Of a stretch of DNA of 64,000 nt, positions 3,778 through 60,022 are shown one piece after another. How positions within the stretch are numbered: the first letter of the stretch is position 1; every line of letters begins with the position of its first letter. The translations under genes and the position numbers were made by a program. The DNA comes from an uncultured Streptomycetaceae bacterium (GTDB lineage: Bacteria; Pseudomonadota; Gammaproteobacteria; Burkholderiales; SG8-41). The stretch spans positions 357 to 64,356 of the forward strand of contig CAZFRR010000065.1 in NCBI GenBank assembly GCA_964521405.1, read 5' to 3'. The notes under the pieces are model-generated. The model worked only from the letters and a program-made list of their open reading frames with translations. It did no database searches and was not told the DNA's origin.

Positions 3778-3936
3778 AATGATGAATGATGAATGATGAA
3801 TGATGAACGGAAGAAATGGCCTGTCATGTTTCCGTCGATCACATCAATATTCATCAATGTCCTTTTTTGCCCACACTGCTCGCTTTTCATCGGTCCAATT
3901 TTCATTCCGCATTCATCATTCATCATTCATCATTCA
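3778..3936. repeat. Short-period array hairpin, AATGATG / CATTCAT flavour
   Basis: Left arm 3778-3807: 4 x AATGATG plus AA. Right arm 3903-3936: CATTCCG, then 3 x CATTCAT, then CATTCA. The core is about 95 nt and relatively AT-rich. The right arm contains the aminotransferase stop codon. Confidence 0.85.
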
Positions 3937-10636: not shown

Positions 10637-10712
10637 GTTCCGGGTTCCGGGTTCCGGGTTGATGTGAACCTTGAACCTTGAACCTTGAACTCGGAACTCG
10701 GAACTCGGAACC
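10637..10712. repeat. Short-period array hairpin, GGTTC / GAACC flavour
   Basis: Left arm: 3 x GTTCCGG plus GTT (10637-10660). Loop: GATGT. Right arm: 3 x GAACCTT, 3 x GAACTCG, then GAACC (10666-10712). It fills the whole 81-nt moxR-DUF58 spacer. Confidence 0.9.
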
Positions 10713-11838: not shown

Positions 11839-13791
11839 ACTGACCAGAAACAGCCGATCGCCTGGCACCACGTGGTCTACCTGCTGGTGTCGCTGACGAT
11901 GGTTGCGGCGCCGCACAGCTACCATTTGCCGTGGTGGACGATCGCGCTCGTATCCACCCTCATCGCATGGCGCGCCTACCTGGGATACGCCAGCCTCTCC
12001 CTGCCGAACCGCTGGTTCCTGTTCCTGATCGCCGCGGGCGCGACCCTTGGCGTCTTCGTGAGTTACCGGACCATCTTCGGGCGTGATGCGGGAGTGGCGT
12101 TGCTCGTGGTCATGCTCGGGCTGAAGTTTCTCGAGACGCGCACGCTGCGCGATGCGGTGCTCCTGATCTTCCTCGGTTACTTCCTGGTGATCACCAATTT
12201 CCTGCGCGACCAGACCATACCCACCGCGTTCTACATGCTCGCCTGCACGCTGGTCATCACCGCGACCATGATCAGCCTGAATTACGCGCGCACCGAGCCT
12301 CCCTTCCGCGTTCAACTTCGCCAGGCGGGGGTCATGCTCGCCCAGTCAGTGCCGCTGATGCTGGTGCTGTTCCTGCTCTTTCCCCGCGTCCCCGGGCCGC
12401 TCTGGGGCCTGCCCCAGGACACTTTCACCGGTGTGAGCGGCTTGTCCGATACCATGACCCCCGGCAGCCTTTCCCGGCTCACCCTGTCCGACGAAGTCGC
12501 TTTCCGGGTGAAGTTCGAGTCCGAGATCCCGCGCCTGAGGAACCTCTACTGGCGCGGCCCGGTGATGTGGGATTACGACGGCCGGGGCTGGAAAGTGTCG
12601 CGTTTCTTCTACAACGTTCCGAGAATCGAGGTATCGGGCGATCCGGTCGAGTACGAAATCACGCTCGAAGCGCACAACCGGCGCTGGCTGTTCGCGCTCG
12701 ATGTGCCCGGCAAAGTGCCGCCGCTCGCTTTCGTGGGCGGGGACTTCCAGCTCTTCTCCAGCGATCCGGTGGTGAAGCGCATGCGCTACGGCATGCTCTC
12801 CTACCTGAATGCCACGTATGGACAGGCGGAGAACCGATTCGCGATCCGCCGTGCCTTGGAACTGCCTGACGGCTCCAACCCGCAGGCCCGGTCGCTCTCG
12901 CGCGAGCTGCGAAAAAAGCACGCCGACGACCTGGCCCTCGTTTACGAGGTGCTGCAGATGTTCCGCGGCCAGGATTTCTTCTACACCCTCGAGCCGCCGC
13001 TCCTCGGCGATCACCCGGTGGACGAGTTCCTGTTCAAGACCCGCGCCGGATTCTGCGAGCACTACGCGTCCGCCTTCGCGGTGCTGATGCGGGGAGCGGG
13101 AATCCCCGCGCGCATCGTGACCGGTTACCAGGGCGGGCAAATCAACGACTTCGGCAACTATCTGATCGTGCGCCAGGCGGATGCCCACGCCTGGACCGAG
13201 ATCTGGCTGAAGGACCGGGGCTGGATGCGCATCGATCCGACTTCCGCGGTCTCGCCATTACGGGTGGAGTCAGGCCTCTCCGCCGCGGTGCCGGGCAGCG
13301 ATATCCTGCCCCTGATGGTGCGCGGCGGCTTCGAGTGGATGTTCCAGTTGCGCTTGAGCTGGGACTTCATGGCCAACTCCTGGAACCAGTGGGTGCTGGG
13401 CTACACCCCGGAGCGGCAGGTGTGGCTGCTGTCCCGCGCCGGCATCGACAACGCCACCTGGCAGAAGTTGACGGCGATGCTCTTTTTCCTGGGAGGCGTC
13501 ATCGTCGCCGTGTTCATTGCGCTGGCGCTGCGCCAGTTGAAAGGCCGGGTGCGCGACCCGGTCAAGGCCGCTTACCTGCGGTTTTGCGACAAGCTGCGGC
13601 GCAAGGGGCTGCCGCGCTCGCCCGCGGAAGGCCCCGTGGACTATGCGCGCCGGGTGGAAACCGCACGGCCCGATCTCACCCCCGCCGTCTCCGCCATTAC
13701 CCGGCTCTACATCATGCTTCGCTACAGCACGGAATCAGGCGCCGCGGCGCTGGCTGAATTACAGCTTCGGGTCCGGCAGTTCAGCGCCTGA
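11836..13791 (+). CDS. Transglutaminase-like membrane protein (DUF3488-type N-terminus plus TGase core)
   Basis: 651 aa with several N-terminal hydrophobic helices. Cys-His-Asp core context: GFCEHYASAF, DAHAWTEIW, RIDPT. Confidence 0.9.
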   Translation: MTDQKQPIAWHHVVYLLVSLTMVAAPHSYHLPWWTIALVSTLIAWRAYLGYASLSLPNRWFLFLIAAGATLGVFVSYRTIFGRDAGVALLVVMLGLKFLETRTLRDAVLLIFLGYFLVITNFLRDQTIPTAFYMLACTLVITATMISLNYARTEPPFRVQLRQAGVMLAQSVPLMLVLFLLFPRVPGPLWGLPQDTFTGVSGLSDTMTPGSLSRLTLSDEVAFRVKFESEIPRLRNLYWRGPVMWDYDGRGWKVSRFFYNVPRIEVSGDPVEYEITLEAHNRRWLFALDVPGKVPPLAFVGGDFQLFSSDPVVKRMRYGMLSYLNATYGQAENRFAIRRALELPDGSNPQARSLSRELRKKHADDLALVYEVLQMFRGQDFFYTLEPPLLGDHPVDEFLFKTRAGFCEHYASAFAVLMRGAGIPARIVTGYQGGQINDFGNYLIVRQADAHAWTEIWLKDRGWMRIDPTSAVSPLRVESGLSAAVPGSDILPLMVRGGFEWMFQLRLSWDFMANSWNQWVLGYTPERQVWLLSRAGIDNATWQKLTAMLFFLGGVIVAVFIALALRQLKGRVRDPVKAAYLRFCDKLRRKGLPRSPAEGPVDYARRVETARPDLTPAVSAITRLYIMLRYSTESGAAALAELQLRVRQFSA

Positions 13792-13797
13792 AATCAT

Positions 13798-13920
13798 GTT
13801 CCGGGTTCCGGGTTCCGGGTTCCGGGTTCCGGGTTCCGGGTTCCGGGTTCAAGATTGGAGTGGGCTGCAAATGGAGGATTCCGACTTTGAACTCGGAACT
13901 TTGAACTCGGAACCTTGAAC
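13798..13920. repeat. Short-period array hairpin, GGTTC / GAACC flavour
   Basis: Left arm: 7 x GTTCCGG plus GTTCAAG (13798-13853). The core is 29 nt. Right arm: GACTTTG AACTCGG AACTTTG AACTCGG AACCTTG AAC (13883-13920). The copy number was checked against the translation of ORF 13643..13918. Confidence 0.9.
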
Positions 13921-13927
13921 GCCTGTT

Positions 13928-20593: not shown

Positions 20594-20693
20594 GTGACTC
20601 GTTATTCGTTTCTCGTTCCTGGTGACCCGGCTGAGCCGGAGCTTCACTCGAATCGGCAATTACGAGGAACGAGCGACGAGAAACGAGGGACGG
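20594..20693. repeat. Short-period array hairpin, GTNNCTC / GAGNNAC flavour, abutting the tRNA-Pro 3' end
   Basis: Left arm: GTGACTC GTTATTC GTTTCTC GTTCCTG GTGACCC (20594-20628). Right arm: ACGAGGA ACGAGCG ACGAGAA ACGAGGG ACGG (20662-20693). The core contains the mini-hairpin CCGGC-TGA-GCCGG. Confidence 0.85.
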
Positions 20694-29147: not shown

Positions 29148-29969
29148 TTGCATTTTTCCCGAATCATCGTCGCCGAACTGATCGACGCTCTCGACCGCGG
29201 CAAGGTCATTTCCTCGGTCATCGAGCGCAATCCGCAATTTGACTGGGATGCGGCCTACCGGGTCGCAGCCGACATCGTCAAGCTGCGGCGGGCACGCGGT
29301 GAGAAGACCATTGGGCGCAAGATCGGCTTCACCAACCGCAACATCTGGGCGGAGTACGGCGCCACCGCGCCGATCTGGGCGCACGTCTACGATCGCACCG
29401 TGCAGTTCGCGGACGGCGATCGCGCCACCGTTTCGCTGGAAGGCAGTGTGCAACCGCGGCTCGAGCCCGAGATCGCGTTCAAGCTCAAGGCTCCGCTGCG
29501 CCCGGGCGTCAATCATCCCGCGCTGGTTCTCGAGGCGATCGAGTGGTTGGCGCCGAGCTTCGAGATCGTGGACTGCCACTTCGCCGGCTGGAAGTTCGGG
29601 CCGGCGGAATCAGCAGCTGATTTTTCATTCCACTGGAAGCTCATCGTTGGCACGCCCTGCCCTATTCGGCGCGACGCGATCGCCGATCTCGTGGACCGGC
29701 TCCGCGACTGCAACGTCGAGCTCAGCAGGAATGGGCAAGTCGCGGATCGGGGCACGGGCGCGAACGCGTTGGGACACCCCGCGCTCGCTCTCGCCTTTCT
29801 CGCCGATATCCTGATGCGGCAGCCGCAGTTCGAGCCGCTCGCGGCGGGAGAGATCATCACCACCGGCACGCTGACAGCCGCGATGCCGATCCGGCCGGGT
29901 GAGTCGTGGTCCTCGCGCTATGAGGGCTTGCCCGGCGTAACAGGCCTTTCACTCGTCTTCACCGAGTGA
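29148..29969 (+). CDS. 2-keto-4-pentenoate hydratase / 4-oxalocrotonate decarboxylase family (MhpD-like) protein
   Basis: 273 aa. The TTG start lies 8 nt after the SD AGGAG. Segments IGRKIGFTNRNIW and GEIITTGTLT are present. Confidence 0.75.
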   Translation: MHFSRIIVAELIDALDRGKVISSVIERNPQFDWDAAYRVAADIVKLRRARGEKTIGRKIGFTNRNIWAEYGATAPIWAHVYDRTVQFADGDRATVSLEGSVQPRLEPEIAFKLKAPLRPGVNHPALVLEAIEWLAPSFEIVDCHFAGWKFGPAESAADFSFHWKLIVGTPCPIRRDAIADLVDRLRDCNVELSRNGQVADRGTGANALGHPALALAFLADILMRQPQFEPLAAGEIITTGTLTAAMPIRPGESWSSRYEGLPGVTGLSLVFTE

Positions 29970-29975
29970 AAGACC

Positions 29976-30062
29976 AATGAGGAATGATGAATGCAAAATG
30001 ATGACCTGAAGACCTAAAACCGACCTTCCGTTCATCATTCATCATTCATCATTCATCATTCC
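29976..30062. repeat. Short-period array hairpin, AATGATG / CATTCAT flavour (second copy)
   Basis: Left arm: AATGAGG AATGATG AATGCAA AATGATG A (29976-30004). The core is about 24 nt. Right arm: CG, then 4 x TTCATCA, then TTCC (30029-30062). The right arm supplies the last comEC codons and its stop. Confidence 0.85.
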
Positions 30063-32453
30063 GAATTCCAGGGGATCCGGCACCGGGTCCCCGATCAGTG
30101 GCGTCTGCCAGTAGCGCCGGTAAATCGCGCGGTAGGGCGTCACGCTGATCATGCCTTCCGCGCTGATCGCGATCGTCACAGCGCCATCGCGATCACTGCG
30201 GTAGATGCGCGTGCCGGCGTCGCGGTAGCGCTCCACCACTTCGCGGTGAGGATGACCCAGCCGGTTGCGGTAGCCGGCCGTGAACACCGCCAGCTTCGGC
30301 TCGACTGCGCGCACGAACTCGGGGGTCGACGAAGTGCGGCTGCCGTGATGCGGCACCACCAGCACATCGGAGCGCAAACGATCGCGCGAGCGGGCCAGCA
30401 GCTCCTCTTCGGAGCGGCGCTCGATGTCGGCGGACAGCAAGATCCGGCCGCCCGCCGCCTCGACCGTGAGCACGCAGCCGCGGTCGTTGTCCTTCACTGC
30501 AGGATCTCCGTAGCTTGCCCGCGAAGGGTGCAGAATCTCGAAGCGCACGCCATCCCATTCCCATTGCTGCCCGGCCTCGCAGCGCAACGCCGGGTTGGCC
30601 TGCACCACCAGGGGATCGAGATCGGGCAACGACGTCAGCAGCCAGTCCATGGGTAACGCCTGCAGGACCGATGCCGCCCCGCCCCAGTGATCGTCGTCGT
30701 CGTGAGTGACGATCATGCCGTCGAGCCGCCTCACCCCGACCGCCCGCAGGTAGGGCACGATGATGCGGGTGCCGCTGTCCGCGCCCGGCCCGAACGCAGG
30801 ACCGGCGTCGTAGAGCAGAGCGTGATTCGCGGTGCGAACCACTGCGGAGAGCCCCTGCCCGACGTCGAGGATGGCGAGCTCGACGTCTCCCGTTCTCAAG
30901 GCCGACGGCGCCACTGCGAACAGGGGCAGCAACCCGATCACGCCCAGCCAGCGCGCTGGCATCCCGCGCGGAGCGAGCAGCCAGGCCAGCGCAGAGACCG
31001 CGACGACCACGGCCCAGGCCGGGGGCGCGCGCTGCTCCCACACCACGTCGGGCAGCAGGGCGAGCCACTCGAGCAGCGTCATGCACCCGCTCATCATGAG
31101 ATGCGCGCAATGGAGGATGAAATCGAACGGCACCGCGACCCCGATCAGCGCCAGTGGTGCGACGGCGAGGCTCACCACCGGGATCGCCACGGCGTTGGCA
31201 AGCGGCGAGACAATCGATACCTGCTGGAACATCGCCAGCAGTGGCGGGATCAGCGCCAGCGTCACCGCGATCTGCACCCTGGCCCAGCTCGCGAGCCAGT
31301 GGCTGCGGCCGATGCGGCCCACCGTGACGTACATGATGACGGCCACGGCGCCGAACGACAGCCAGAATCCCGCCGCCAGCACCGCCCAGGGATCGATCAG
31401 CATGACCACAAGCAGCGCCACGCACAGCACGATCGACGCCGACTCGATGACGCCCAGCCACAGCGCGGCCGCGACCACGGCCAGCATGTAGACCGTGCGC
31501 TGCGCCGGCACCGCGAAACCCGCCAGCAGCGCATAGAGCAGCGCGGCGCCCAGCGCCCCGGCCGCCGCGGCCTTCAACGCAGGCAGCGCCAGCGTCAGCC
31601 GGGGAATGCGCCGCCACAGGCCGTAGACCAGCGCGAACACGAGGCCCGAGACCATGGTGACGTGCAGGCCCGAGATGCTCATCAGGTGGTTGACGCCGGT
31701 GCGGGTGAATGTCTGCCATTGTTCCGGCGGGATGGCGCGCTGGTCCCCGATCGCGAGCGCAACGATGACGCCGGCGTACGGCGCCTCCGGCAATGCGGCC
31801 TGGATGCGCGAGCGAATCATGCCGCGGGCGCGCTCGACCCAGTAGCCGGGCTCGTGCACCATCGTCGCCAGGCGCTCGCGGGCCGTTCTCGGCCGCACAT
31901 AACCTGTCGCGCGGAGATTGCGTTCGAACAGCCACGCCTCGTAGTCGAAGCCGTGGGGATTGGCCGTGCCGCGCGGGCGCTTCAGCCTCACGGTCAATTG
32001 CCAGCGTTCGCCCGGCTCGAGCGAAGGAATGGTGGCGGGCCGGTCCTCGCGCGCTGGCGTGCCCCACCACGACAATACGATATGCCGCGGCACCCGCGCG
32101 TCCGGGGTCAGCACGCGCTCGACGTTGAACTCGAAGCGCACACCTCGCTCGTAAGCCTGCGGCAGCCCGGACACGACGCCGATGACCGCGATGTCGCGCC
32201 CTTCCCATTCCGCCGGCAGCGCGTCGGCGAGCCGCTCGCCCGCGCACCACGCCGCCCAGGAGAAACCCAGAGCGATGCACGCCGCCTTCACGGTTGCTTC
32301 GCGCAGCAGGCGCGCCATCCAGCCCTCGGGGCGGGCAGCGGCCGCCACGACTCCTGCCGCGCCGAACGCCAGCACCCAGCCGAACTCCGGCAGCGCGGCC
32401 TGCTGCTGCAGCCACCACGCGCCCGCCGCGAAGCACAGAACGTTGAGCCTCAT
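30042..32453 (-). CDS. comEC: DNA internalization competence protein ComEC/Rec2
   Basis: 803 aa with a polytopic competence domain and a C-terminal metallo-beta-lactamase-like domain (IVTHDDDDHWGGA). Confidence 0.92.
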   Translation of the reverse strand: MRLNVLCFAAGAWWLQQQAALPEFGWVLAFGAAGVVAAAARPEGWMARLLREATVKAACIALGFSWAAWCAGERLADALPAEWEGRDIAVIGVVSGLPQAYERGVRFEFNVERVLTPDARVPRHIVLSWWGTPAREDRPATIPSLEPGERWQLTVRLKRPRGTANPHGFDYEAWLFERNLRATGYVRPRTARERLATMVHEPGYWVERARGMIRSRIQAALPEAPYAGVIVALAIGDQRAIPPEQWQTFTRTGVNHLMSISGLHVTMVSGLVFALVYGLWRRIPRLTLALPALKAAAAGALGAALLYALLAGFAVPAQRTVYMLAVVAAALWLGVIESASIVLCVALLVVMLIDPWAVLAAGFWLSFGAVAVIMYVTVGRIGRSHWLASWARVQIAVTLALIPPLLAMFQQVSIVSPLANAVAIPVVSLAVAPLALIGVAVPFDFILHCAHLMMSGCMTLLEWLALLPDVVWEQRAPPAWAVVVAVSALAWLLAPRGMPARWLGVIGLLPLFAVAPSALRTGDVELAILDVGQGLSAVVRTANHALLYDAGPAFGPGADSGTRIIVPYLRAVGVRRLDGMIVTHDDDDHWGGAASVLQALPMDWLLTSLPDLDPLVVQANPALRCEAGQQWEWDGVRFEILHPSRASYGDPAVKDNDRGCVLTVEAAGGRILLSADIERRSEEELLARSRDRLRSDVLVVPHHGSRTSSTPEFVRAVEPKLAVFTAGYRNRLGHPHREVVERYRDAGTRIYRSDRDGAVTIAISAEGMISVTPYRAIYRRYWQTPLIGDPVPDPLEFGMMNDE

Positions 32454-34469: not shown

Positions 34470-34777
34470 GGAAGGATTACGACGGGTCGCTAAGGACGCA
34501 AAGGCCGCGAAGGAAATAATAATTACAACAAAGGTCGCTAAGACAGCGCCAAGGGTGCTATCGGCAGGACAATTTGGAATAGATTTGAACCACGGCCGAA
34601 CCGGATTACTAAACATTACAATTCCGACAGCGTTTCCTATTCCCCGCTTGGCGCTGTCTTCGCGTCCTTTGGTTGGTTTTCGATAATGTATTCCTTCGCG
34701 GCCTTGGCGGCCTTTGCGTTGAGGCTTCTATTTTCCTTCGCGGCCTTGGCGGCCTTCGCGTTGAAGCTTTGCTGTCA
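34444..34777. repeat. Composite nested-palindrome element (CGCGAAGGA / TCCTTCGCG, GCCAAG / CTTGGC units)
   Basis: It starts CACCGCCAAG and ends AAGCTTTGCTGTCA. The inner perfect 14-bp pair is AAGACAGCGCCAAG (34540-34553) with CTTGGCGCTGTCTT (34647-34660). The core is AT-rich. The last 62 nt are about 85% identical to 40194-40254. Confidence 0.8.
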
Positions 34778-36857: not shown

Positions 36858-37023
36858 GGTGAAACCACCCCCATCCCAACCTTCCCCCTGAGGGGGAAGG
36901 GGAATTTTTTCTTCCCCCTGAGGGGGAGGAGAACTCTTTTCTGCGCGAGAAAAAACATTCCCTCCCCCTCAGGGGGAGGGCCAGGGTGGGGGTGGTTCGT
37001 TTGCTTCGCGACCACTCATTCTG
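36858..37023. repeat. GC-rich nested-palindrome element, copy 1
   Basis: The outer stem ACCACCCCCATCCC / GGGTGGGGGTGGT encloses three hairpins: CCTTCCCCC-TGA-GGGGGAAGG, CTTCCCCC-TGA-GGGGGAGG and CCCTCCCCC-TCA-GGGGGAGGG. It is the reverse complement of 59782-60022. Confidence 0.85.
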
Positions 37024-37061: not shown

Positions 37062-38072
37062 ATGCACGTAACACTCCTCGTTCCCGATCTGTTCTGGCCG
37101 CGCGACGACGGCGGGGGGGCGTACCGGGAACTGGAATTGCCGGCGCTGGCAAGATTTCTCTCTCGTTCCCGGCGGCGCAGCCTTCCTCCACTCGGCCTCG
37201 AAGCGTGGCTGTGCCAGGCTTTCGGGGTCGAGCGCCAGCAGGACTGGCCCGTCGCCCCGATCACACTCGGCTTCGACGGCGGTGATGCCGGCGACGATTA
37301 CTGGCTGCGCGCCGACCCGGTACACCTGGTCACCCGCCGGGACCAGCTGACGCTGGTCGATTCCGAAGTGCTGCAACCCGGCGAAGAAGAAGCGGCCGAA
37401 CTCATCGCAGCTATTAACCGCCACTTTGCCGGCGATGGCCTGGTTTTCCAGGCGCCACAGCCGGCGCGGTGGTATTTGCGCGTTCCCGGCTCGCCGCGCC
37501 TGGCGACGCGCGAGATCTCCGCGGTGGCGGGCCAGGATGTCGGCGGCGCACTCCCCTCCGGCGAGGACGGCCCGCGCTGGCGGCGGCTGTTCAACGAGAT
37601 CCAGATGCTGCTGCACGAGCATCCCGTGAATCAGCGCCGGGAATCCAGCGGGAAACTGCCAATCAATAGTGTGTGGTTGTGGGGCGGCGGGCAGCGGCAG
37701 GCAGCTTCCGGGCGACCGTTCTCGCACGTGGGTGGCAAGAACGCGCTCGCCCTTGCCCTCGCCGCGAGATGCGGCGCCGAGACGACAGTCCCAGGTAGCG
37801 TGCCTGACCGGGCGGCGCGCACGCTCATAGTGGCAGAAGCGCCCGCCGCGCGTTATGGAAATGACGAGGCCTGGCGGCAGGCGCTCGCGGAAATCGAGCG
37901 CGACTGGTTCGAGCCGCTAGTCTCGGCTCTGCGCCGCCGCACACTCGAGGGACTTGCCGTGGTTGCCCTGCATCCGCGCGCCTGCGAGCGCTTCGAGGCG
38001 ACGGCCACGGATCTGCTCAAGTTCTGGCGGCCGGTTCGCGAACTTTCCGTCCATGCCCCGGGGGACCGCTAA
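37062..38072 (+). CDS. Conserved hypothetical protein (possibly RpfE-type / phosphoglycerate-mutase-like, by position next to recJ)
   Basis: 336-aa ORF with coding-like composition. Its stop overlaps the recJ start (TAATG). The functional guess comes only from the recalled Xanthomonas rpfE-recJ-prfB-lysS neighbourhood. Confidence 0.6.
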   Translation: MHVTLLVPDLFWPRDDGGGAYRELELPALARFLSRSRRRSLPPLGLEAWLCQAFGVERQQDWPVAPITLGFDGGDAGDDYWLRADPVHLVTRRDQLTLVDSEVLQPGEEEAAELIAAINRHFAGDGLVFQAPQPARWYLRVPGSPRLATREISAVAGQDVGGALPSGEDGPRWRRLFNEIQMLLHEHPVNQRRESSGKLPINSVWLWGGGQRQAASGRPFSHVGGKNALALALAARCGAETTVPGSVPDRAARTLIVAEAPAARYGNDEAWRQALAEIERDWFEPLVSALRRRTLEGLAVVALHPRACERFEATATDLLKFWRPVRELSVHAPGDR

Positions 38073-39817
38073 TGCCGCAGGTCATCACTCGTGAAGTGCC
38101 CCGGGGCGCCGCTGATTCGCTGGTTGCTGACGGCGTGCCGCCGTTGCTGGCGCGTGTCTACGCCGCCCGCGGCATTTTGACGGCACGCGACCTCGCGCAG
38201 GAATTCGAGCACCTCGCGCCTCTCGCCGCCATGCTCAATCTGCGGGAAATGGCCGCGCGGCTGGCCGATGCGATCGCGGAGCGCAGAAAGCTGCTGATCG
38301 TCGCCGACTACGACGCCGATGGCGCCACCGCGTGCGCCGTGGGCTTGCGCGCGCTGCGCGCCTTTGGCGCGTCGGTCGAATTCCTGGTGCCGAACCGTTT
38401 CGAATACGGCTACGGGCTCTCTCCGGAGATCGTGCGTCTCGCCCACGCGCAATTCCGCCCCGACATCCTGATCACGGTGGACAACGGCATCTCGAGCCTC
38501 GAGGGCGTCGCGGAAGCGAACCGCCTGGGGATGGCGACGCTGATCACCGATCACCATTTGCCCGGAGAACGGCTGCCGGATGCCACCTGCATCATCAATC
38601 CCAATCAGCCCGGCTGCGCCTTCCCGAGCAAGAACCTGGCCGGCGTCGGTGTCATGTTCTACCTCATGCTGGCCCTCAGGGCCGAGCTCCGCGAGCGCGG
38701 CGCGTTCGGCCAAAGTCGAAAGGAAGACGGGTCATCCTTCATCCTTCATCCTTCATCCTTGGGTTCGGCGGAGCCGAACCTCGCCGACCTCCTCCCGCTC
38801 GTCGCTCTGGGCACCGTGGCCGACGTAGTGCCACTAGATCGCAACAACCGCATCCTGGTGCAGCAGGGTCTCGCCCGCATCCGCGCGGGCCGCATGCAGC
38901 CGGGTATCGCAGCACTGTTCCAGGTCGCGGATCGCGATCCGCGCCGCACCGCGGCGCGCGACCTGGGTTTCGTGCTGGGCCCGCGGTTGAACGCCGCCGG
39001 ACGGCTCACCGACATGGCGCTCGGCATCGAGTGCCTCGCCACGGATGACGCCGGCCGGGCACACACCATCGCAACCGAGCTCGATCGCTTGAATCGCGAG
39101 CGGCGAGGGATCCAGTCCGACATGCAGGATGAAGCGCTCGCGGCGGTAGAAGCGCAGGATTTCGGAGAGAGCTACACGCTCGCCCTCTTCGATCCCGCCT
39201 GGCACCAAGGGGTGGTCGGCATCGTGGCCGGGCGCATCAAGGACCGCTTTCACCGCCCTGCCATCGCGTTCGCGCGCGGCAATCCGGGCGAGATCCGGGG
39301 CTCGGGGCGCTCGATCACCGGCCTTCACTTGCGCGACGCGCTCGACCGGGTCGCAGTGTCGCACCCCGGGCTCATTGCGAAGTTCGGCGGTCACGCCGCT
39401 GCAGCAGGCCTGACTATCAGGGAAAGCGACTTCGAGCGCTTCCGCGCGGCTTTCGAGCAAGCGGCGCAATCACTGCTCTCACCAGCCGACCTTGAGCGCG
39501 TCATCGAAACCGACGGCGGCCTAGCCCCCGAGGATTGCACCACTGAGACCGTTCAACTGCTGTCAGGCCCGGTGTGGGGGCAGGGATTTCCCCCGCCGCG
39601 GTTCTGCGACGAGTTCGAGGTTGCGGCCCAGCGCATCGTGGGTGGCAAACATCTCAAGATGACGCTCGCACGTGGCGCTCTCCGCATCGACGCCATACGC
39701 TTCCAGAGCACGGAGGCTGCCCCGCCCCGCATCCGCGCGGTCTACCAGCCTTCGCTCAACGAATGGAATGGCCGCATCTCGGTGCAGCTTACGGTCGAGC
39801 ACTGGGAGGAAGCCTGA
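38072..39817 (+). CDS. recJ: Single-stranded-DNA-specific exonuclease RecJ
   Basis: 581 aa with DHH motifs IVADYDADG, ITVDNGI and LITDHH, plus a DHHA1 GGH context. Confidence 0.95.
   Translation: MPQVITREVPRGAADSLVADGVPPLLARVYAARGILTARDLAQEFEHLAPLAAMLNLREMAARLADAIAERRKLLIVADYDADGATACAVGLRALRAFGASVEFLVPNRFEYGYGLSPEIVRLAHAQFRPDILITVDNGISSLEGVAEANRLGMATLITDHHLPGERLPDATCIINPNQPGCAFPSKNLAGVGVMFYLMLALRAELRERGAFGQSRKEDGSSFILHPSSLGSAEPNLADLLPLVALGTVADVVPLDRNNRILVQQGLARIRAGRMQPGIAALFQVADRDPRRTAARDLGFVLGPRLNAAGRLTDMALGIECLATDDAGRAHTIATELDRLNRERRGIQSDMQDEALAAVEAQDFGESYTLALFDPAWHQGVVGIVAGRIKDRFHRPAIAFARGNPGEIRGSGRSITGLHLRDALDRVAVSHPGLIAKFGGHAAAAGLTIRESDFERFRAAFEQAAQSLLSPADLERVIETDGGLAPEDCTTETVQLLSGPVWGQGFPPPRFCDEFEVAAQRIVGGKHLKMTLARGALRIDAIRFQSTEAAPPRIRAVYQPSLNEWNGRISVQLTVEHWEEA
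38732..38759. repeat. Perfect 4 x 7-nt tandem repeat (TCATCCT) inside the recJ coding sequence
   Basis: Codons S221-S229 (SSFILHPSS) are encoded by TCATCCT x 4. The position was computed from the recJ start at 38072. Confidence 0.9.
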
Positions 39818-39824
39818 ACAGCCT

Positions 39825-40254
39825 CACCGCCAAGGTAGCCAGGGACGCGAAGGAGCAGAAAAGCCTCGACACGAAGGACACAAAGGACACAAAGGACACT
39901 AAGGAAAAACGAATCAGAATTGATTCGGTGACCAGTCGCACCTGACCGGCCGCCGGACGGTTTACGGCTTTTGATCTTGGGGCCCCTGTGCGCTGCCGAG
40001 TAGCGCCCTGCCCCGGTGATGAGTGATAGGTGATGGGTGATGGGTCTTTTATTCCGAATCTCTGAACCAGTAGTGTCTCTTGTAGGCCACCCTTGGCGCG
40101 TTTCCTTCGCGACCTTCAGGTTTTGCCTTTGACCTTATTATTCTTCCCTTCGCGGTAAAGCTTTTATTTTCCTTGGCGACCTCCGCGTCCTTCGCGGTGA
40201 GGCTTTTCTGTTCCTTCGCGGCCTTGGCGTCCTTCGCGGTAAAGCTTTACGTCA
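39825..40254. repeat. Composite nested-palindrome element (same family as 34444-34777) with internal arrays
   Basis: It starts CACCGCCAAG and ends AAGCTTTACGTCA. It contains 3 x (N)AAGGACAC with a 9-nt period near 39873-39907, a CGAATC/GATTCG hairpin, GTGATGA GTGATAG GTGATGG GTGATGG (40016-40045), and TCCTTCGCG units on the right. Confidence 0.8.
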
Positions 40255-40310
40255 ATCGGCTCTAACAGCCTCACCCACTGTATAATTTGGTATTTTCAGG
40301 CGCCGAATTC

Positions 40311-41415
40311 ATGGAAGCAGAACGTATCAATGCGATCGTCCGCCAGCTCTCCGACGTCGAAGGACGCGCGGCCGAGCTACGGAGGTATCTTTGACTTCGA
40401 GGCCAAGCAGCGCCGCCTAGCCGAGGTCGCCAGGCTCGCCGAAGACCCCGCCGTGTGGAGCGACAACAAGCGCGCGCAGGAGCTCGGCCGGGAGCGGAAA
40501 ACCCTTGAATCCCTGGTGGGCACGTTCGACCGGCTCGACTCCGGGCTGCGCGACGCCAAGGAACTCTTCGAGATTGCCAAGTCCGAGCGCGACGATGCCA
40601 CGCTGGTTGCGCTCGAGGGAGACGCACGCTCGCTGGAGAGCACCGTGGCGGGCCTGGAATTCCGCCGCATGTTTTCCCACCCGATGGACCCCAGCAATTG
40701 TTTCCTCGACATCCAGTCAGGCTCGGGCGGAACGGAAGCGCAGGATTGGGCGCAGACGCTACTGCGCATGTATACGCGCTACTGCGAGCGCAAGGGTTTC
40801 CGCGTGGAACTGCTCGAGGAGTCGCCCGGCGAAGTCGCGGGGTTGAAGAGCGCGGCGCTCAAGGTGGCGGGCGACTACGCCTACGGCCATCTGCGAACGG
40901 AATCCGGCGTGCACCGGCTGGTGCGCAAATCCCCGTTCGACGCCAACAGCCGCCGCCACACCTCGTTCGCCAGCGTGTTCGTCTATCCCGAGGTGGACGA
41001 ATCCATCGAGATCACGATTAACCCGGCCGACTTGCGGATCGACACCTTCCGCTCCTCGGGGGCGGGCGGCCAGCACGTCAACAAGACCAACTCGGCGATC
41101 CGCATCACGCATATCCCGACCAACACCGTCGTGCAGTGCCAGAACGACCGCTCGCAGCACCGTAACAAGGCTGAGGCGATGGCGATGTTGAAGTCGAAGC
41201 TCTACGAGATCGAGTTGCGCAAGCAGCTGGACGAAAAGCAGGCGATGGAGGACTCCAAGACCGACATCGGCTGGGGCCACCAGATCCGCTCCTACGTGCT
41301 TGACCAGTCCCGCATCAAGGATCTGCGCACCGGCGTCGAGATCGGCAACACGCAGTCCGTGCTGGACGGCAACCTCGACGTTTTCATCGAAGCGAGCCTC
41401 AAAAAGGGTTCGTAA
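40311..41415 (+). CDS. prfB: Peptide chain release factor 2, requiring a programmed +1 frameshift
   Basis: Frame 0 runs 40311-40391 ([27 protein letters not shown]) to an in-frame TGA at 40392. The +1 frame continues from 40393 (DFEAKQRRL...) to 41415. SPF (RKSPFD) and GGQ ([11 protein letters not shown]) motifs are present. Confidence 0.95.
40381..40395 (+). promoter_or_regulatory. RF2 autoregulatory +1 frameshift site (GGAGG-TAT-CTT-TGA-C)
   Basis: An internal SD-like GGAGG lies 3 nt upstream of the CTT TGA C slippery/stop context, as in E. coli prfB. Confidence 0.9.
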
Positions 41416-42999: not shown

Positions 43000-43096
43000 A
43001 GTTTTGAGTTTTGAATGTTGAGTTTTGAGTTGGATTGCGCCCGTTATTCGAACTCAGCACTCAGCACTTAACACTCAACACTCAAAACTCAAAACT
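43000..43096. repeat. Short-period array hairpin, AGTTTTG / CACTCAA flavour
   Basis: Left arm: AGTTTTG AGTTTTG AATGTTG AGTTTTG AGTT (43000-43031). The loop is 18 nt. Right arm: GAACTCA GCACTCA GCACTTA ACACTCA ACACTCA AAACTCA AAACT (43050-43096). Confidence 0.85.
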
Positions 43097-46059: not shown

Positions 46060-46920
46060 ATGACTTCCTTAGCCCTGTCGCTGATCCTCGCCGCCGCCGT
46101 CATCCACGCGAGCTGGAACTACCTCCTCAAGCGCTCGGGCGGCGGTGTCGTATTCGTGTGGCTGTTCGCCAGCCTCTCCGCGCTCATCTACCTGCCACTG
46201 GCGGGGCTCATCATCTGGTGGGAAAAGCCTCAATTCGGGTGGGTGCATTACGGCCTGATGTTCGCGAGCGCGGTCCTGCATACCGTTTATTACCTGCTGC
46301 TCGACCGCGGCTACCGCAGCGGCGACCTGTCGGTGGTCTACCCCATCGCCCGCGGCACTGGCCCGCTCATCACCGTGCTGTGCGCCGTGCTGCTGCTGGG
46401 CGAGCACCCGAGCGCGATCGCGATTGCCGGGGCGCTGCTCATCGGCGGCGGCGCGATCGCGCTGACGGGCGACCCGCGCAAGCTTCGCCAGTCCGGGAAT
46501 CTTCACGCGGTCGGCTTCGCATTGCTGACCGGATGCATGATCGCCAGCTACACGCTGGTGGACAAGATCGCCGTCGCCGCCTGGCTGATCCCGCCGCTGG
46601 TGCAGGACTGGGCCACCAACGTCGGCCGCGTGCTGCTGATGACGCCGATGGCGCTGAAGCGCAAGGCGGAGATCGCGCCCACCTGGCATCGCGCCAAAAA
46701 GGAAATCCTCGCGGTGGCGGTGCTTTGCCCGCTGTCCTACATCCTGGTGCTGACGGCGATGGTGTTCACGCCGGTAAGCTATGTCGCGCCGGCGCGCGAA
46801 ATCAGCATTCTCGTTGCGGCGTTCATGGGAACGCAGTGGCTGGCGGAAGGCGACGTCAGGCGCCGGCTGGCCGCCGCCGGCGCGATGGTCGCCGGCATCA
46901 TCTGCTTAGCCGTGGGCTGA
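46060..46920 (+). CDS. DMT-superfamily (EamA-like) transporter
   Basis: 286 aa, about 10 hydrophobic helices, N-terminus MTSLALSLILAAAVIHASWNYLLK. Confidence 0.85.
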   Translation: MTSLALSLILAAAVIHASWNYLLKRSGGGVVFVWLFASLSALIYLPLAGLIIWWEKPQFGWVHYGLMFASAVLHTVYYLLLDRGYRSGDLSVVYPIARGTGPLITVLCAVLLLGEHPSAIAIAGALLIGGGAIALTGDPRKLRQSGNLHAVGFALLTGCMIASYTLVDKIAVAAWLIPPLVQDWATNVGRVLLMTPMALKRKAEIAPTWHRAKKEILAVAVLCPLSYILVLTAMVFTPVSYVAPAREISILVAAFMGTQWLAEGDVRRRLAAAGAMVAGIICLAVG

Positions 46921-46930
46921 CCGCTGCCAC

Positions 46931-47129
46931 GTTCAAAGTTCAAGGTTCAAGGTTCAAGGTTCAAAGTTCAAGGTTCAAGATTGTCAGTGCGAGCTGCCGC
47001 TCGCGATTTTGAACCCGGAACCCGGAACCCGGAACCCGGAACCCGGAACACGGAACCCGGAACCCGGAACCCGGAACCTGGAACCTGGAACCTGGAACTC
47101 GAAACTCGGAACCCGGAACCCGGAACTCA
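46931..47129. repeat. Largest array hairpin in the window, GGTTC / GAACC flavour (7 + 17 units)
   Basis: Left arm, 7 units of GTTCAA(A/G) (46931-46979). The 31-nt core carries the hairpin GCGAGC-TGCC-GCTCGC followed by GATTTT. Right arm, 17 units (47011-47129): 5 x GAACCCG, GAACACG, 3 x GAACCCG, 3 x GAACCTG, GAACTCG, AAACTCG, 2 x GAACCCG, GAACTCA. Checked against ORF translations. Confidence 0.9.
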
Positions 47130-47953: not shown

Positions 47954-48950
47954 TGTGAAACCTCCGACAGCTGCAGAAAATTATAACTCAACCGATCCCG
48001 GCACGACTCCCATCAGGCTCGCCGTGCCCGCCGGGTGCGCCGGCATGCGGTTGGACCAGGCCCTGGCGCACTTGTTGCCGGCGCATTCGCGAAGCCGGCT
48101 CGCACAGTGGATCAAGGCCGGCCGCGTCAGCCTCGCCGGTCGCGCCGCGCCGCCCAAGAAAAAAGTCCGGGAGGGCGAAGCGATCGAGGTCCTGCCCTCC
48201 CTGGATCCGGCAGCGGCGGCGCATCGCGCGGAAGACATTCCGCTCGAAATCGTGCACGAGGACGGCGCACTGCTGGTCGTCAACAAGCCGGCCGGGCTTG
48301 TCGTTCACCCCGGCAGCGGCAACTGGCAGGGCACGCTGTTGAATGCCCTGCTGGGACATGCGCCGGCGCTTGCCGGCATACCGCGTGCGGGGATCGTACA
48401 TCGCCTGGACAAGGACACCAGCGGCCTCCTGGTCGTCGCCAGGACGCTCCCCGCCCAGACCCATCTCGTGCGTCAGCTCCAGGCGCGCAGCGTGAAGCGG
48501 GAATATCTTGCAGTGGTTCACGGCCGCATCGCGCGTGGCGGCAGGATCGACGCCCCCATCGGCCGCCATCCGGTCAAGCGCACAAAAATGGCGGTGAGCG
48601 CGCGCGGCCGCTCGGCGGTGACGCACTATGAGGTGCTCGAACGTTTTGCCCAGGCCACGCTGCTGCGCTGCCGGCTCGAAACCGGGCGCACCCACCAGAT
48701 ACGCGTGCATCTCGCTTCGCTGGGCCATCCGCTGATCGGTGACCCTGCTTATGGCAAACGCAACAGCACGATTCCCTTCAGCCGTCAGGCGCTGCACGCG
48801 GAACGGCTCGGACTGGTGCATCCGCAAACCGGAAAACCGATGAGCTGGCACGCCGAGCCCCCCGCCGACCTGCGGCAGTTGCTAGAAACCCTGCGCGAAA
48901 CGCAAGGACAGCACGAGAAACGAGCAACGAGCAACGAGTCACGCCGTTGA
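47943..48950 (+). CDS. rluD: 23S rRNA pseudouridine synthase RluD
   Basis: ORF 47862..48950 with an S4 domain and the catalytic segment HRLDKDTSG. The start is uncertain: ATG 47943 overlaps the bamD start, and GTG 47955 is the alternative. Confidence 0.88.
48913..48947. repeat. Lone 7-nt array (ACGAGAA ACGAGCA ACGAGCA ACGAGTC ACGCCGT) forming the last 12 rluD codons
   Basis: Read directly. It ends at the rluD stop (48948-48950) and encodes [12 protein letters not shown]. Confidence 0.8.
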
Positions 48951-48952
48951 CG

Positions 48953-49738
48953 ATGAAATCGCCACACCCGGACTGGATCGTTCCCGACTGGCCCGCGCCG
49001 GCCAACGTCAAGGCCTTCATCACCACGCGGTCCGGTGGCGTCAGTGGCGGCGCCTTTGCCAGCCTGAATCTCGGGCTGCGCACGGATGACGACGCTCAGG
49101 CGGTCGCCGCCAACCGCAAACGATTGTGCGAGTCGCTGCCGCAGCAGCCGCAATGGCTGAAGCAGGTGCACGGCGCCAGCGTCGTCGAGGCCGACCGGCT
49201 TGCCGGGGTGCCCGAGGCTGATGCGGCGATTGCCCGCCAACCGGATACGGTCTGCGCGGTGCTGGTGGCCGATTGCATACCGGTGCTGCTCGCCGACCGC
49301 GCCGGCACCACCGTCGCCATGGCTCACTGCGGATGGCGCGGGCTGGCAGGCGGGATCCTGGAAAACACGCTAATGCGAATGTCTCAGCCGCCTGGGCAAA
49401 TCCTCGCCTATCTCGGCCCCGGCATCGGCCCGCGCGCTTTCGAAGTGGGCGCGGACGTGCGCGACGCATTCCTGGCAGTCGATGCACAGGCGGAAATCGC
49501 ATTCAAACCACACGCCACCGGCAAATGGCTGGCCGACCTCTTTCTGCTCGCGCGCCAGCGCCTCGCCCGCGCCGGCCTGAGCAGCATTCACGGCGGAGAG
49601 CTGTGCACCTTTACCGACTCACAGCGCTTCTTCTCCTATCGCCGCGACCGCACGACCGGCCGGATGGCAGCGGTCATTTGGCTGTCCGCCGAAACGGCGA
49701 ACAGCCAAATGACCGGAGGGATGAAGGCGGAAGGATGA
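48953..49738 (+). CDS. pgeF: Peptidoglycan editing factor PgeF (YfiH, laccase-domain protein)
   Basis: ORF 48947..49738 with ATG at 48953. rluD-yfiH synteny supports the call. The segment HCGWRG is present. Confidence 0.88.
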   Translation: MKSPHPDWIVPDWPAPANVKAFITTRSGGVSGGAFASLNLGLRTDDDAQAVAANRKRLCESLPQQPQWLKQVHGASVVEADRLAGVPEADAAIARQPDTVCAVLVADCIPVLLADRAGTTVAMAHCGWRGLAGGILENTLMRMSQPPGQILAYLGPGIGPRAFEVGADVRDAFLAVDAQAEIAFKPHATGKWLADLFLLARQRLARAGLSSIHGGELCTFTDSQRFFSYRRDRTTGRMAAVIWLSAETANSQMTGGMKAEG

Positions 49739-49829
49739 AGGATGACCTTGCCCGGCGCGAGCCGGGAGAAGGCCCTTTCGCCTTTCCCCTTTTCCTTTTG
49801 CCTTTTGCCTTTTGCCTTTCGACTTCCGC
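49715..49829. repeat. Short-period array hairpin, GATGAAG / CTTTTGC flavour
   Basis: The left arm GGAGG GATGAAG GCGGAAG GATGAAG GATGACC (49715-49747) includes the pgeF stop. The core hairpin is CCCGGC-GCGA-GCCGGG. Right arm: CCTTTCG CCTTTCC CCTTTTC, 3 x CTTTTGC, CTTTCGA CTTCCGC (49774-49829). Confidence 0.85.
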
Positions 49830-49877
49830 CTTATCACGTATAATCCGCGCCTCGTCTGAAACCCTGCAAAGATCTTG

Positions 49878-59781: not shown

Positions 59782-60022
59782 CAGAATGAGTGGTCGCGGA
59801 GCAAACGAACCACCCCCACCCTGGCCCTCCCGGTCCCCCACTCCTTCCCTCTCCCCCGAAAGGGGAGAGGAAGCTCGAGCCTCCCCTCTCAGCTTGGGAG
59901 AGGGGCGAGGGGGAGGGAATGTTTATTTCCTCTCGCAGAAAAGAGTTCTCCTTCCCCCTGAGGGGGAAGAAAAAATTCCCCTTCCCCCTCAGGGGGAAGG
60001 TTGGGATGGGGGTGGTTTCACC
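59782..60022. repeat. GC-rich nested-palindrome element, copy 2 (inverted relative to copy 1, with a 78-nt nested insertion)
   Basis: It is collinear with the reverse complement of 36858-37023. The exception is that the loop of the first hairpin is replaced at 59831-59908 by two extra hairpins (TTCCCTCTCCCC-CGAA-AGGGGAGAGGAA and CCTCCCCTCTC-AGCT-TGGGAGAGGGG). Confidence 0.85.

Follow-up and report, generated by a model that had tools for sequence, protein, structure and literature searches.

A heptamer-repeat module in the hypervariable loop of RecJ in an uncultured betaproteobacterial clade

We analyzed a 64,000-nt stretch of contig CAZFRR010000065.1 from an uncultured bacterium (the window; positions are counted from its first letter), in which the gene for the exonuclease RecJ carries a perfect tandem array of the heptamer TCATCCT. 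The array is part of an insert that has no counterpart in E. coli RecJ, keeps the reading frame and falls in a predicted disordered loop of the DHH domain. The same loop is hypervariable across about 50 recJ genes of uncultured betaproteobacterial relatives, which fill it in frame with heptamer-array modules or with palindromes that resemble repetitive extragenic palindromic (REP) elements. This hypervariability of the RecJ loop, with heptamer-array modules that appear to be filtered for the reading frame, is a new observation. We think it probable that the module is a tolerated passenger in a permissive loop, shaped by slippage, selection for the frame and recombination.

The insert in the window recJ

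The recJ coding sequence (38072-39817, plus strand), recognized from the list of open reading frames, Pfam and BLASTP, is intact and encodes 581 aa plus the stop codon with the insert included. Its product matches DHH (8.8e-23), RecJ_OB (3.2e-20) and DHHA1 (1.1e-19) well over the curated Pfam cut-offs, and the domain order of the RecJ family, DHH, DHHA1 and RecJ OB-fold, was found. This order and the catalytic motifs are shared with the RecJs of E. coli, Thermus thermophilus (2ZXO, 1IR6) and Deinococcus radiodurans (5F54). RecJs in the PDB match at E = 1e-68 to 8e-49, and E. coli K-12 RecJ aligns over the full length with 48% identity (BLASTP). In a 51-sequence RecJ alignment, the residues D79/D81/D83 (DxDxD), D137, D160-H161-H162, D251 and G439-G440-H441 are invariant, and the catalytic motifs (DxD, D, DHH, GTVAD, GGH) also align with those of E. 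coli RecJ. The neighborhood is shared as well, the gene order recJ-prfB-lysS being that of E. coli. As the frame, the domains and the catalytic residues are all kept, the gene looks functional, judging from its sequence.

The raw sequence and Tandem Repeats Finder agree on a perfect array of TCATCCT units at 38732-38760 on the plus strand (29 nt, period 7, 4.1 copies, 100% matches), as an earlier note on this DNA had described. The array spans codons 221-230 and encodes SSFILHPSSL, in which SSFILHP is the product of the three frames of the unit read in turn; the peptide SSFILHPSS named in the note indeed lies inside GQSRKEDGSSFILHPSSLGSAE. The window contains the 14-mer TCATCCTTCATCCT four times against 0.01 expected, and none of 100 dinucleotide-preserving shuffles reached four. 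Three of the occurrences are overlapping registers of the recJ array, while the fourth lies on the minus strand at 49732-49745. The recJ array belongs to the same heptamer family as the intergenic arrays, and its reverse-complement relation to the AAGGATG units near 49.7 kb, pointed out in the note, holds. Upstream of the array, comparison with relatives identifies at 38712-38731 (plus strand) the remnant of a purine-rich arm (AAGTCGAAA, ~1.3 units), followed by the conserved core GGAAGAC and a GGG spacer. We refer to this remnant as the A arm and to the TCATCCT array as the B arm.

The note had described this segment as an insertion, and three comparisons agree with it. In BLASTP against E. 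coli K-12 RecJ, a single 15-residue gap falls between ...LRDQGWFDERN and IAIPNLAELLDLVALGTVADVVPL; E. coli RecJ joins GWFDERN directly to IAIPNLAELL, where the window RecJ places KEDGSSFILHPSSLG (15 codons, residues 217-231; 38720-38764, plus strand). The RecJs of the PDB (8Y30, 5F54, 2ZXO) align as two blocks that skip about residues 207-229, and where the window RecJ has 15-17 more residues, the solved structures join the helix that ends in ...LRERG directly to the one that starts with PNLADLL. In orthologues of the Nitrosospira type, and likewise in Nitrosovibrio and many other metagenome-assembled genomes (MAGs) of Burkholderiales, the loop between the conserved peptides has a baseline length of 45 nt (KRGAFxxxxEPNLA) compared with 96 nt in the window, a difference of 51 nt or 17 codons.

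The position of the insert on a RecJ structure, also raised in the note, was addressed with an AlphaFold2 model based on 51 homologues (mean predicted local distance difference test score, pLDDT, 78.6). The model has a helix at residues 191-208, a coil at 209-236 and a helix at 237-250 that leads toward the GTVAD motif, with pLDDT < 50 at residues 215-232 in this loop of the DHH domain. The insert is therefore predicted to be a disordered connector between two DHH-domain helices. The orientation of the array matters as well: TCATCCT is stop-free in every frame, whereas the complement AGGATGA would give an in-frame TGA, and therefore only the TCATCCT orientation can persist in a gene. At the 3′ end of the insert, the sequence and its minimum-free-energy fold contain a perfect 8-bp hairpin, GGTTCGGC-GGA-GCCGAACC (38762-38780, plus strand), which extends over the conserved Glu-Pro-Asn codons. 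The hairpin is weaker in the related locus L005 and absent from other cassette types, and it may be a trace of the origin of the insert, or chance.

Diversity and turnover of the loop among relatives

The 120 best protein matches of the window RecJ are 73-87% identical to it, so that its closest public relatives reach at most 87%; the exact protein is absent from the public gene-position collection. They are 561-618 aa long and come from soil and groundwater MAGs labeled "Burkholderiales bacterium", and nearly all of their length variation falls in the insert loop. For the DNA, we compared 171 related loci that were selected by tblastn and anchored on the conserved peptides flanking the loop. 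Among 145 distinct loop sequences, 53 bear an insert and ~92 have the baseline length, those of Nitrosospira and Nitrosovibrio included. The concern of the note that the segment might prove a common loop in the family is thus borne out by half: most of the family has a short, ordinary loop, whereas that of this clade is hypervariable and filled with repeats.

In the DNA of the common module, a purine-rich A arm (~4 units) precedes the core GGAAG[AG]C, which a short spacer separates from a B arm (~4 units). The core is common to cassettes whose arm units differ. The 53 distinct insert-bearing loops are built from TCATCCT, TCATCAT, TCATCCC, TCGTCAC, TCATCAC, CGCCTCA, GTCAGGC and other units, or from REP-like palindromes; because the units differ so widely, there is no conserved peptide. 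The loop peptides of the relatives are heptamer arrays translated through all three frames in turn. The unit TCATCCT gives SSFILHPSSL, TCATCCC gives SSLIPHPSSL, TCGTCAC gives SSLVTRHSSP and TCATCAT gives another ten-residue loop peptide, while in the preceding arm GGAAAAG gives REKGKGKREKE and GTCGAAA gives SRKSKVESRKE. At the position of the A arm, relatives carry (AAGTCGA)x4 followed by AAGGAAGAC. The A arm of the window, AAGTCGAAA, equals the four-unit arm of the locus L009 minus exactly 21 nt, and the B arm of the window is full.

At least seven diverged lineages retain the array of four TCATCCT units (L005, L083, L096, P0014, P0015, P0019 and P0087; it is degenerate in L096). In L016, whose RecJ is 65% identical, the entire loop is a true inverted pair, (AAGGATG)3.6-spacer-(TCATCCT)4.4. 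This module carries the variant units AAGGCGG/TCCGCCT, which are also present in the intergenic module of the window at 49714-49747 and thereby connect the recJ insert with a family of dispersed elements. Other loops hold in-frame palindromes similar to REP elements or transposable elements of the miniature inverted-repeat type (MITEs). In one type, AATCCCCCC...CCCCCCTTTGNCAAAGGGGGG...GGGGGGATT is translated as NPPYPPLSKGG..SAGGF, and in another, CCCTTCTCCC-GAAG-GGAGAAGGG as PSSPALLPEGEG. At least three unrelated repeat families have thus used the RecJ loop. By contrast with these insert-bearing genes, the close relatives P0075, P0088, P0095, P0115, P0119 and P0073 have no insert or only a remnant of it, and all their motifs are kept.

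The palindrome loops are spread over several loci. The CCCCCCTTTGNCAAAGGGGGG type was seen in L004, L006, L020, L086, L095 and L102, and loops of the PSSPALLP..EGEG type in L008, L010, L029, L048, L114 and L118. Palindromes with AATCCCCCC...GGGGGGATT ends are present in one to three copies per RecJ loop, all in frame and up to ~156 nt. The loops of L120, L124, L022 and L026 contain a local tandem duplication of host sequence (AELRKRGAFE...AELRKRGAFE) in place of a repeat element; this site may have a tendency to slip or duplicate that does not depend on the arrays.

Slippage occurs in the recJ arrays of relatives. L162 and L163 have one and four ACTCGTC units, respectively, a clean indel of 21 nt (3 units, 7 residues), and elsewhere their 1.8-kb alignment has just 6 columns with a mismatch or gap. 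L166 and L167 differ by a 9-nt in-frame deletion within a TCATCAT array. Relatives mostly have arrays of 4-5 units, with one of 10.6 (L094), compared with 4.1 units (29 nt) in the window. We also considered a strict quantization of copy number (1, 4, 7, 10). Individual cases are suggestive (1 vs 4 units; 4 vs 7 in P0012; 10.6 in L094), but the distribution is blurred by degenerate array borders, and this idea was not retained.

The second mode of change is the replacement of whole cassettes. In the pairs L164/L165, L169/L170 and L171/L163, the genes are nearly identical except for one patch of 150-220 nt centered on the cassette, inside which the units of both arms differ and the flanking conserved codons show many synonymous differences. 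Such a mosaic patch, here seen in metagenome contigs, is the signature of a short homologous-recombination patch. When a neighbor-joining tree was built from sequences without the loop, 25 of its 40 closest pairs (<4% amino-acid divergence elsewhere) proved to differ in the loop. Pair selection biases this count, and the choice of pairs with low divergence elsewhere and different cassettes favors the finding of a single patch. Cassette types with type-specific 3′ flanks (-KSD, -EGS, -G[SP]A, -GGS) recur across the tree. The window itself offers a related case: its recJ shares 73% DNA identity with that of L005, but 93% over a 60-nt block that holds the TCATCCT array with the flank 3′ of it, which fits recent cassette exchange or homogenization.

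Heptamer arrays elsewhere in the window

A scan of the window with Tandem Repeats Finder and our own search found 29 heptamer arrays of at least three units. After a check of the start codons, 27 of these proved to lie outside gene bodies, in many cases immediately upstream of a start codon. The recJ array, 660 nt past the start codon, is the only one that lies deep inside a gene. The statement of the note that the arrays are not restricted to non-coding DNA is therefore correct, with recJ as a rare exception (1 of 29 deep in a gene). An ACGAGAA/ACGAGCA array at 48913-48938 (plus strand) specifies roughly the final dozen residues of a pseudouridine synthase similar to RluD (S4 and PseudoU_synth_2 domains). 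It is a second, terminal, instance of a coding array, and its unit type is also present at 2438-2463 and 20662-20687.

The intergenic module most similar to that of recJ lies on the minus strand at 49714-49832. It comprises a (GGCRAAA)n arm, a spacer with a CCCGGC/GCCGGG hairpin and an arm of TCATCCT TCATCCT TCCGCCT TCATCCC. Many of the intergenic arrays are inverted pairs (13790-13925, 46920-47126 and 29965-30070, also 3778-3936, 10637-10711 and 43000-43096), for example GTTCCGG x 8 with GAACTYG, GTTCAAG x 7 with GAACCCG x 16, and AATGATG with TCATTCA. The pairs fold as long register-matched hairpins with a small central hairpin, with RNA folding z-scores of -5.0 to -5.4 and none of 200 shuffles as stable. 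We found no description of paired inverted heptamer arrays in the literature searched.

Several further repeats were noted in the window. A perfect CATCATT x 4 array (3778-3807, minus strand) abuts the ATG of a homoserine dehydrogenase gene (Pfam Homoserine_dh, NAD_binding_3, ACT), where it occupies the expected position of the ribosome-binding site and resembles the start-codon-proximal TAACTGA repeats of Beggiatoaceae. The spacer between recJ and prfB contains GACACAAAG x 4.2 at 39868-39905, ~50 nt past the recJ stop codon, GGTGATG x 4.4 at 40015-40045, and at 40147-40248 a 42-nt unit x 2.4 that holds CCTTCGCGG motifs, which recur at 34693-34760. In prfB, the canonical programmed +1 frameshift site is present at 40380-40395 (plus strand) as a GGAGG Shine-Dalgarno-like element, 3 nt and CTT TGA C. 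A 30-nt tandem repeat (~2.1 copies) with the palindrome CCCCCTGAGGGGG / CCCCCTCAGGGGG at 36881-36942 and 59937-59999 is probably a REP-like family of the window genome, distinct from those in the recJ genes of the relatives.

We also looked for the array peptide in other proteins. The matches to (SSFILHP)n (P0121-P0240) were only hypothetical proteins of 35-79 aa without Pfam domains, from Thermoanaerobaculia, Pyrinomonadaceae, Anaerolineae, a cyanobacterium, Halomonas and Pirellulales. These short proteins are probably open reading frames called over intergenic arrays, and their presence in several phyla means that TCATCCT-type arrays occur there and are often mis-called as tiny genes. No (SSFILHP)n was found in other real proteins by this search, which is insensitive to 10-residue segments in long proteins.

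Explanations for the array and comparison with known repeat systems

The explanation that we favor as probable is that of a tolerated passenger. The recJ array would be one arm of a heptanucleotide repeat module, made of a purine-rich arm, the GGAAGAC core and a TCATCCT-type arm, and the module would belong to a genome-wide, mostly intergenic family of heptamer arrays. It would lie in frame within a permissive, disordered surface loop that joins the post-DHH helix to the helix before the GTVAD motif, and it may have been acquired in an ancestor of the uncultured betaproteobacterial clade, unless the loop was colonized several times. Replication slippage would act in the arms, and since 7 cannot be divided by 3, only changes that restore the frame would survive selection for a functional RecJ, namely the gain or loss of three units (21 nt, 7 aa) or deletions that are compensated. 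Whole cassettes would be swapped among related lineages through short patches of homologous recombination. The encoded peptide would be a passenger without specific function, and single-unit slips, which surely arise in the recJ array, would yield recJ-null cells that are apparently purged rather than used as a switch.

Some of our observations weigh against this explanation or leave room for others. The disorder of the loop is a model prediction, and the mosaic patches come from metagenome assemblies, in which chimeras could in principle arise. The alleles compared are those of consensus genomes, beside which OFF variants may exist at low frequency. The frequent replacement of cassettes among near-identical genes could mean selection or a recombination hotspot, although no conclusion on either was drawn from the three mosaic pairs, as the choice of pairs is biased toward a single patch. 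Finally, the 93% identity of the array block between the window and L005 against 73% for the gene calls for recent transfer, homogenization or constraint, and not simple neutrality.

The earlier note had proposed that the array is a potential slipped-strand on/off switch of recJ, which would make it a contingency locus. With a unit of 7 nt at codons 221-230 of 581, the gain or loss of one unit would indeed shift the frame, as the note had calculated, and would truncate RecJ before the GTVAD motif and DHHA1; reversion would restore the protein, and sub-populations would differ in recombination, repair or repeat stability. The slippage part of this proposal stands, as copy number changes among relatives (L162/L163, L166/L167). 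Because E. coli lives without recJ, cells in the OFF state would survive, and the pair with one and four units could have passed through OFF intermediates. The use of the array as a switch is nevertheless unlikely. The array has merely 4 units, while known phase switches usually use longer tracts, this state is conserved across at least seven diverged lineages, and degenerate units in many alleles damp slippage. Moreover, 144 of the 145 distinct loop sequences are in frame, in a sample of tblastn-selected loci from independent assemblies that did not exclude broken genes; length variants among close relatives keep the frame. The single exception, L024 (recJ at 3001-4740 of contig_4560 in the long-read MAG MFD05942), has exactly three CTCATCC units, one short of the in-frame state, and was examined as an OFF allele. 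A second indel ~60 codons downstream restores the original frame in it, which together with the long-read origin points to a pseudogene or indel errors, and we rejected it as evidence of an OFF allele. In a still less likely variant, the recJ loop would be no passive passenger site; it would act as a self-referential mutator switch, reversible and of low frequency, and/or as a cassette that recombination shuffles and selection maintains. The E. coli RecJ exonuclease reportedly helps to stabilize tandem repeats, according to work attributed to Feschenko, Rajman and Lovett in 2003. A one-unit slip that turns RecJ off would then transiently destabilize the hundreds of heptamer arrays of the genome, until another slip or the import of a cassette repaired the gene. 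If the array were such a switch, repeat instability would be linked to the very repair nuclease that controls repeat instability.

A further explanation, in which diversifying or balancing selection acts on the protein and makes the loop a functional, hypervariable cassette whose diversity the heptamer arrays generate, appears as improbable as a simple switch. Escape from a RecJ inhibitor encoded by a phage or plasmid, or the tuning of an interaction, would be examples. The different cassettes in 25 of the 40 closest pairs of near-identical genes, the recurrence of cassette types with their flanks across the tree, the three pairs in which the cassette patch is the sole divergent block of the gene and the conservation of the array and its flank above that of the remaining gene between the window and L005 would all agree with such selection. 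However, six close relatives lack the insert or keep a remnant and have all motifs intact, the cassettes range from charged and serine-rich peptides to proline/glycine-rich translations of REP-like elements with no shared feature, the pair choice is biased, and no RecJ partner or inhibitor is known. A role of the DNA or RNA itself, as a structure or protein-binding site in pausing, attenuation or an internal regulatory element, a role that the intergenic pairs may have, is very unlikely. The long register-matched hairpins of the intergenic pairs (z ~ -5), the true AAGGATG/TCATCCT inverted pair of L016 and the perfect 8-bp hairpin directly after the array speak for it. In contrast, the recJ modules fold no better than shuffles (z = -1.1 in the window, +0.5 in L082 and -1.6 in L009), there is no match to an Rfam family, and the unit sequence varies among relatives. 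The region 37900-40400 contains no promoter-like site and only two terminator-like sites, both downstream of the recJ stop codon and far from the array. On the shuffle z-scores, the Rfam search and the promoter and terminator scan, a structural role of the recJ module was rejected. Least credible of all is an artefact of assembly or sequencing that would make the array or its copy number unreal. Short tandem repeats are open to mis-assembly, but a read is much longer than this array of 29 nt, the array leaves the frame unbroken, and identical arrays with their flanks are present in independent assemblies from different projects (L005, L083; P0014, P0015, P0019, P0087).

If the passenger explanation is right, the recJ loop would be a natural example of a non-triplet repeat inside an essential-type enzyme, held in a predicted disordered loop in the only stop-free orientation and changing solely in steps of 3 units (7 residues) that restore the frame or through the exchange of cassettes. 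The case would widen the idea of selfish DNA inside genes from palindromic elements to heptamer arrays. It also draws attention to an uncultured soil and groundwater betaproteobacterial clade with genomes full of paired heptamer arrays, and we regard the high rate of cassette exchange and the origin of these paired arrays as the most interesting loose ends.

The comparison with known systems begins with the dispersed repeats that sit in genes. In 2000, Ogata et al. are said to have described Rickettsia palindromic elements inserted in frame in protein-coding genes. Dispersed repeats in frame inside conserved proteins include these elements (PMC1779305) and the MITEs of Coxiella (PMC5896051; reviewed in PMC10969869). 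As in those cases, a mostly intergenic family has a member in frame in a conserved protein, at a position that is here probably permissive and on the surface (a predicted coil with pLDDT < 50); the insert is absent from orthologues, the frame is kept and the catalytic motifs are spared, and the recJ loop of relatives even holds true REP/MITE-like palindromes. The Rickettsia and Coxiella elements are, however, palindromes of 100-150 bp, while the recJ element is a tandem heptamer array (pair) that varies by slippage and recombination patches. At the window recJ module, we saw no signs of transposition or target-site duplication and no palindromic or terminal-inverted-repeat architecture (z = -1.1); among the recJ modules, only that of L016 has an inverted pair.

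Simple-sequence contingency loci, which vary in phase by slipped-strand mispairing and are well known from Haemophilus influenzae and Neisseria, share with the recJ array a non-triplet unit within the coding sequence, slippage and a frame shift on a one-unit change (on the phenomenon, see passages in PMC12721329, PMC4692102 and PMC4679880). The recJ array differs in having just 4 units, in lying in a cytoplasmic housekeeping repair nuclease gene and not in a surface or restriction-modification gene, and in showing no credible OFF allele in 145 distinct alleles, in which the changes preserve the frame (21 nt, 9 nt, cassette swaps).

The closest likeness is to the heptanucleotide long simple sequence repeats (long SSRs). 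According to passages in PMC4679880 and PMC4692102 that refer to Mrazek et al. (2007), heptanucleotide repeats are the commonest class of long SSRs in large high-G+C genomes and cyanobacteria, are mostly intergenic and prefer about four units; related heptamers named in these passages are the TAACTGA repeats of Beggiatoaceae and the GGGNATC repeats of Xanthomonas and Nostoc. The window arrays have the 7-nt unit, the large number of arrays, the strongly intergenic location, often near start or stop codons, and the common copy number of ~4. Head-to-tail 7-nt units in at least three copies, with differing units and nearly all arrays at gene boundaries, were found as in long SSRs and short tandemly repeated repetitive sequences. 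Differences are the location of the recJ array in a gene body, window units that do not form G-quadruplexes, and the many window arrays that are inverted pairs with hairpins. The array family is thus a full member of the heptanucleotide long SSR class only, and shares individual traits with contingency loci and with Rickettsia palindromic element or MITE insertions.

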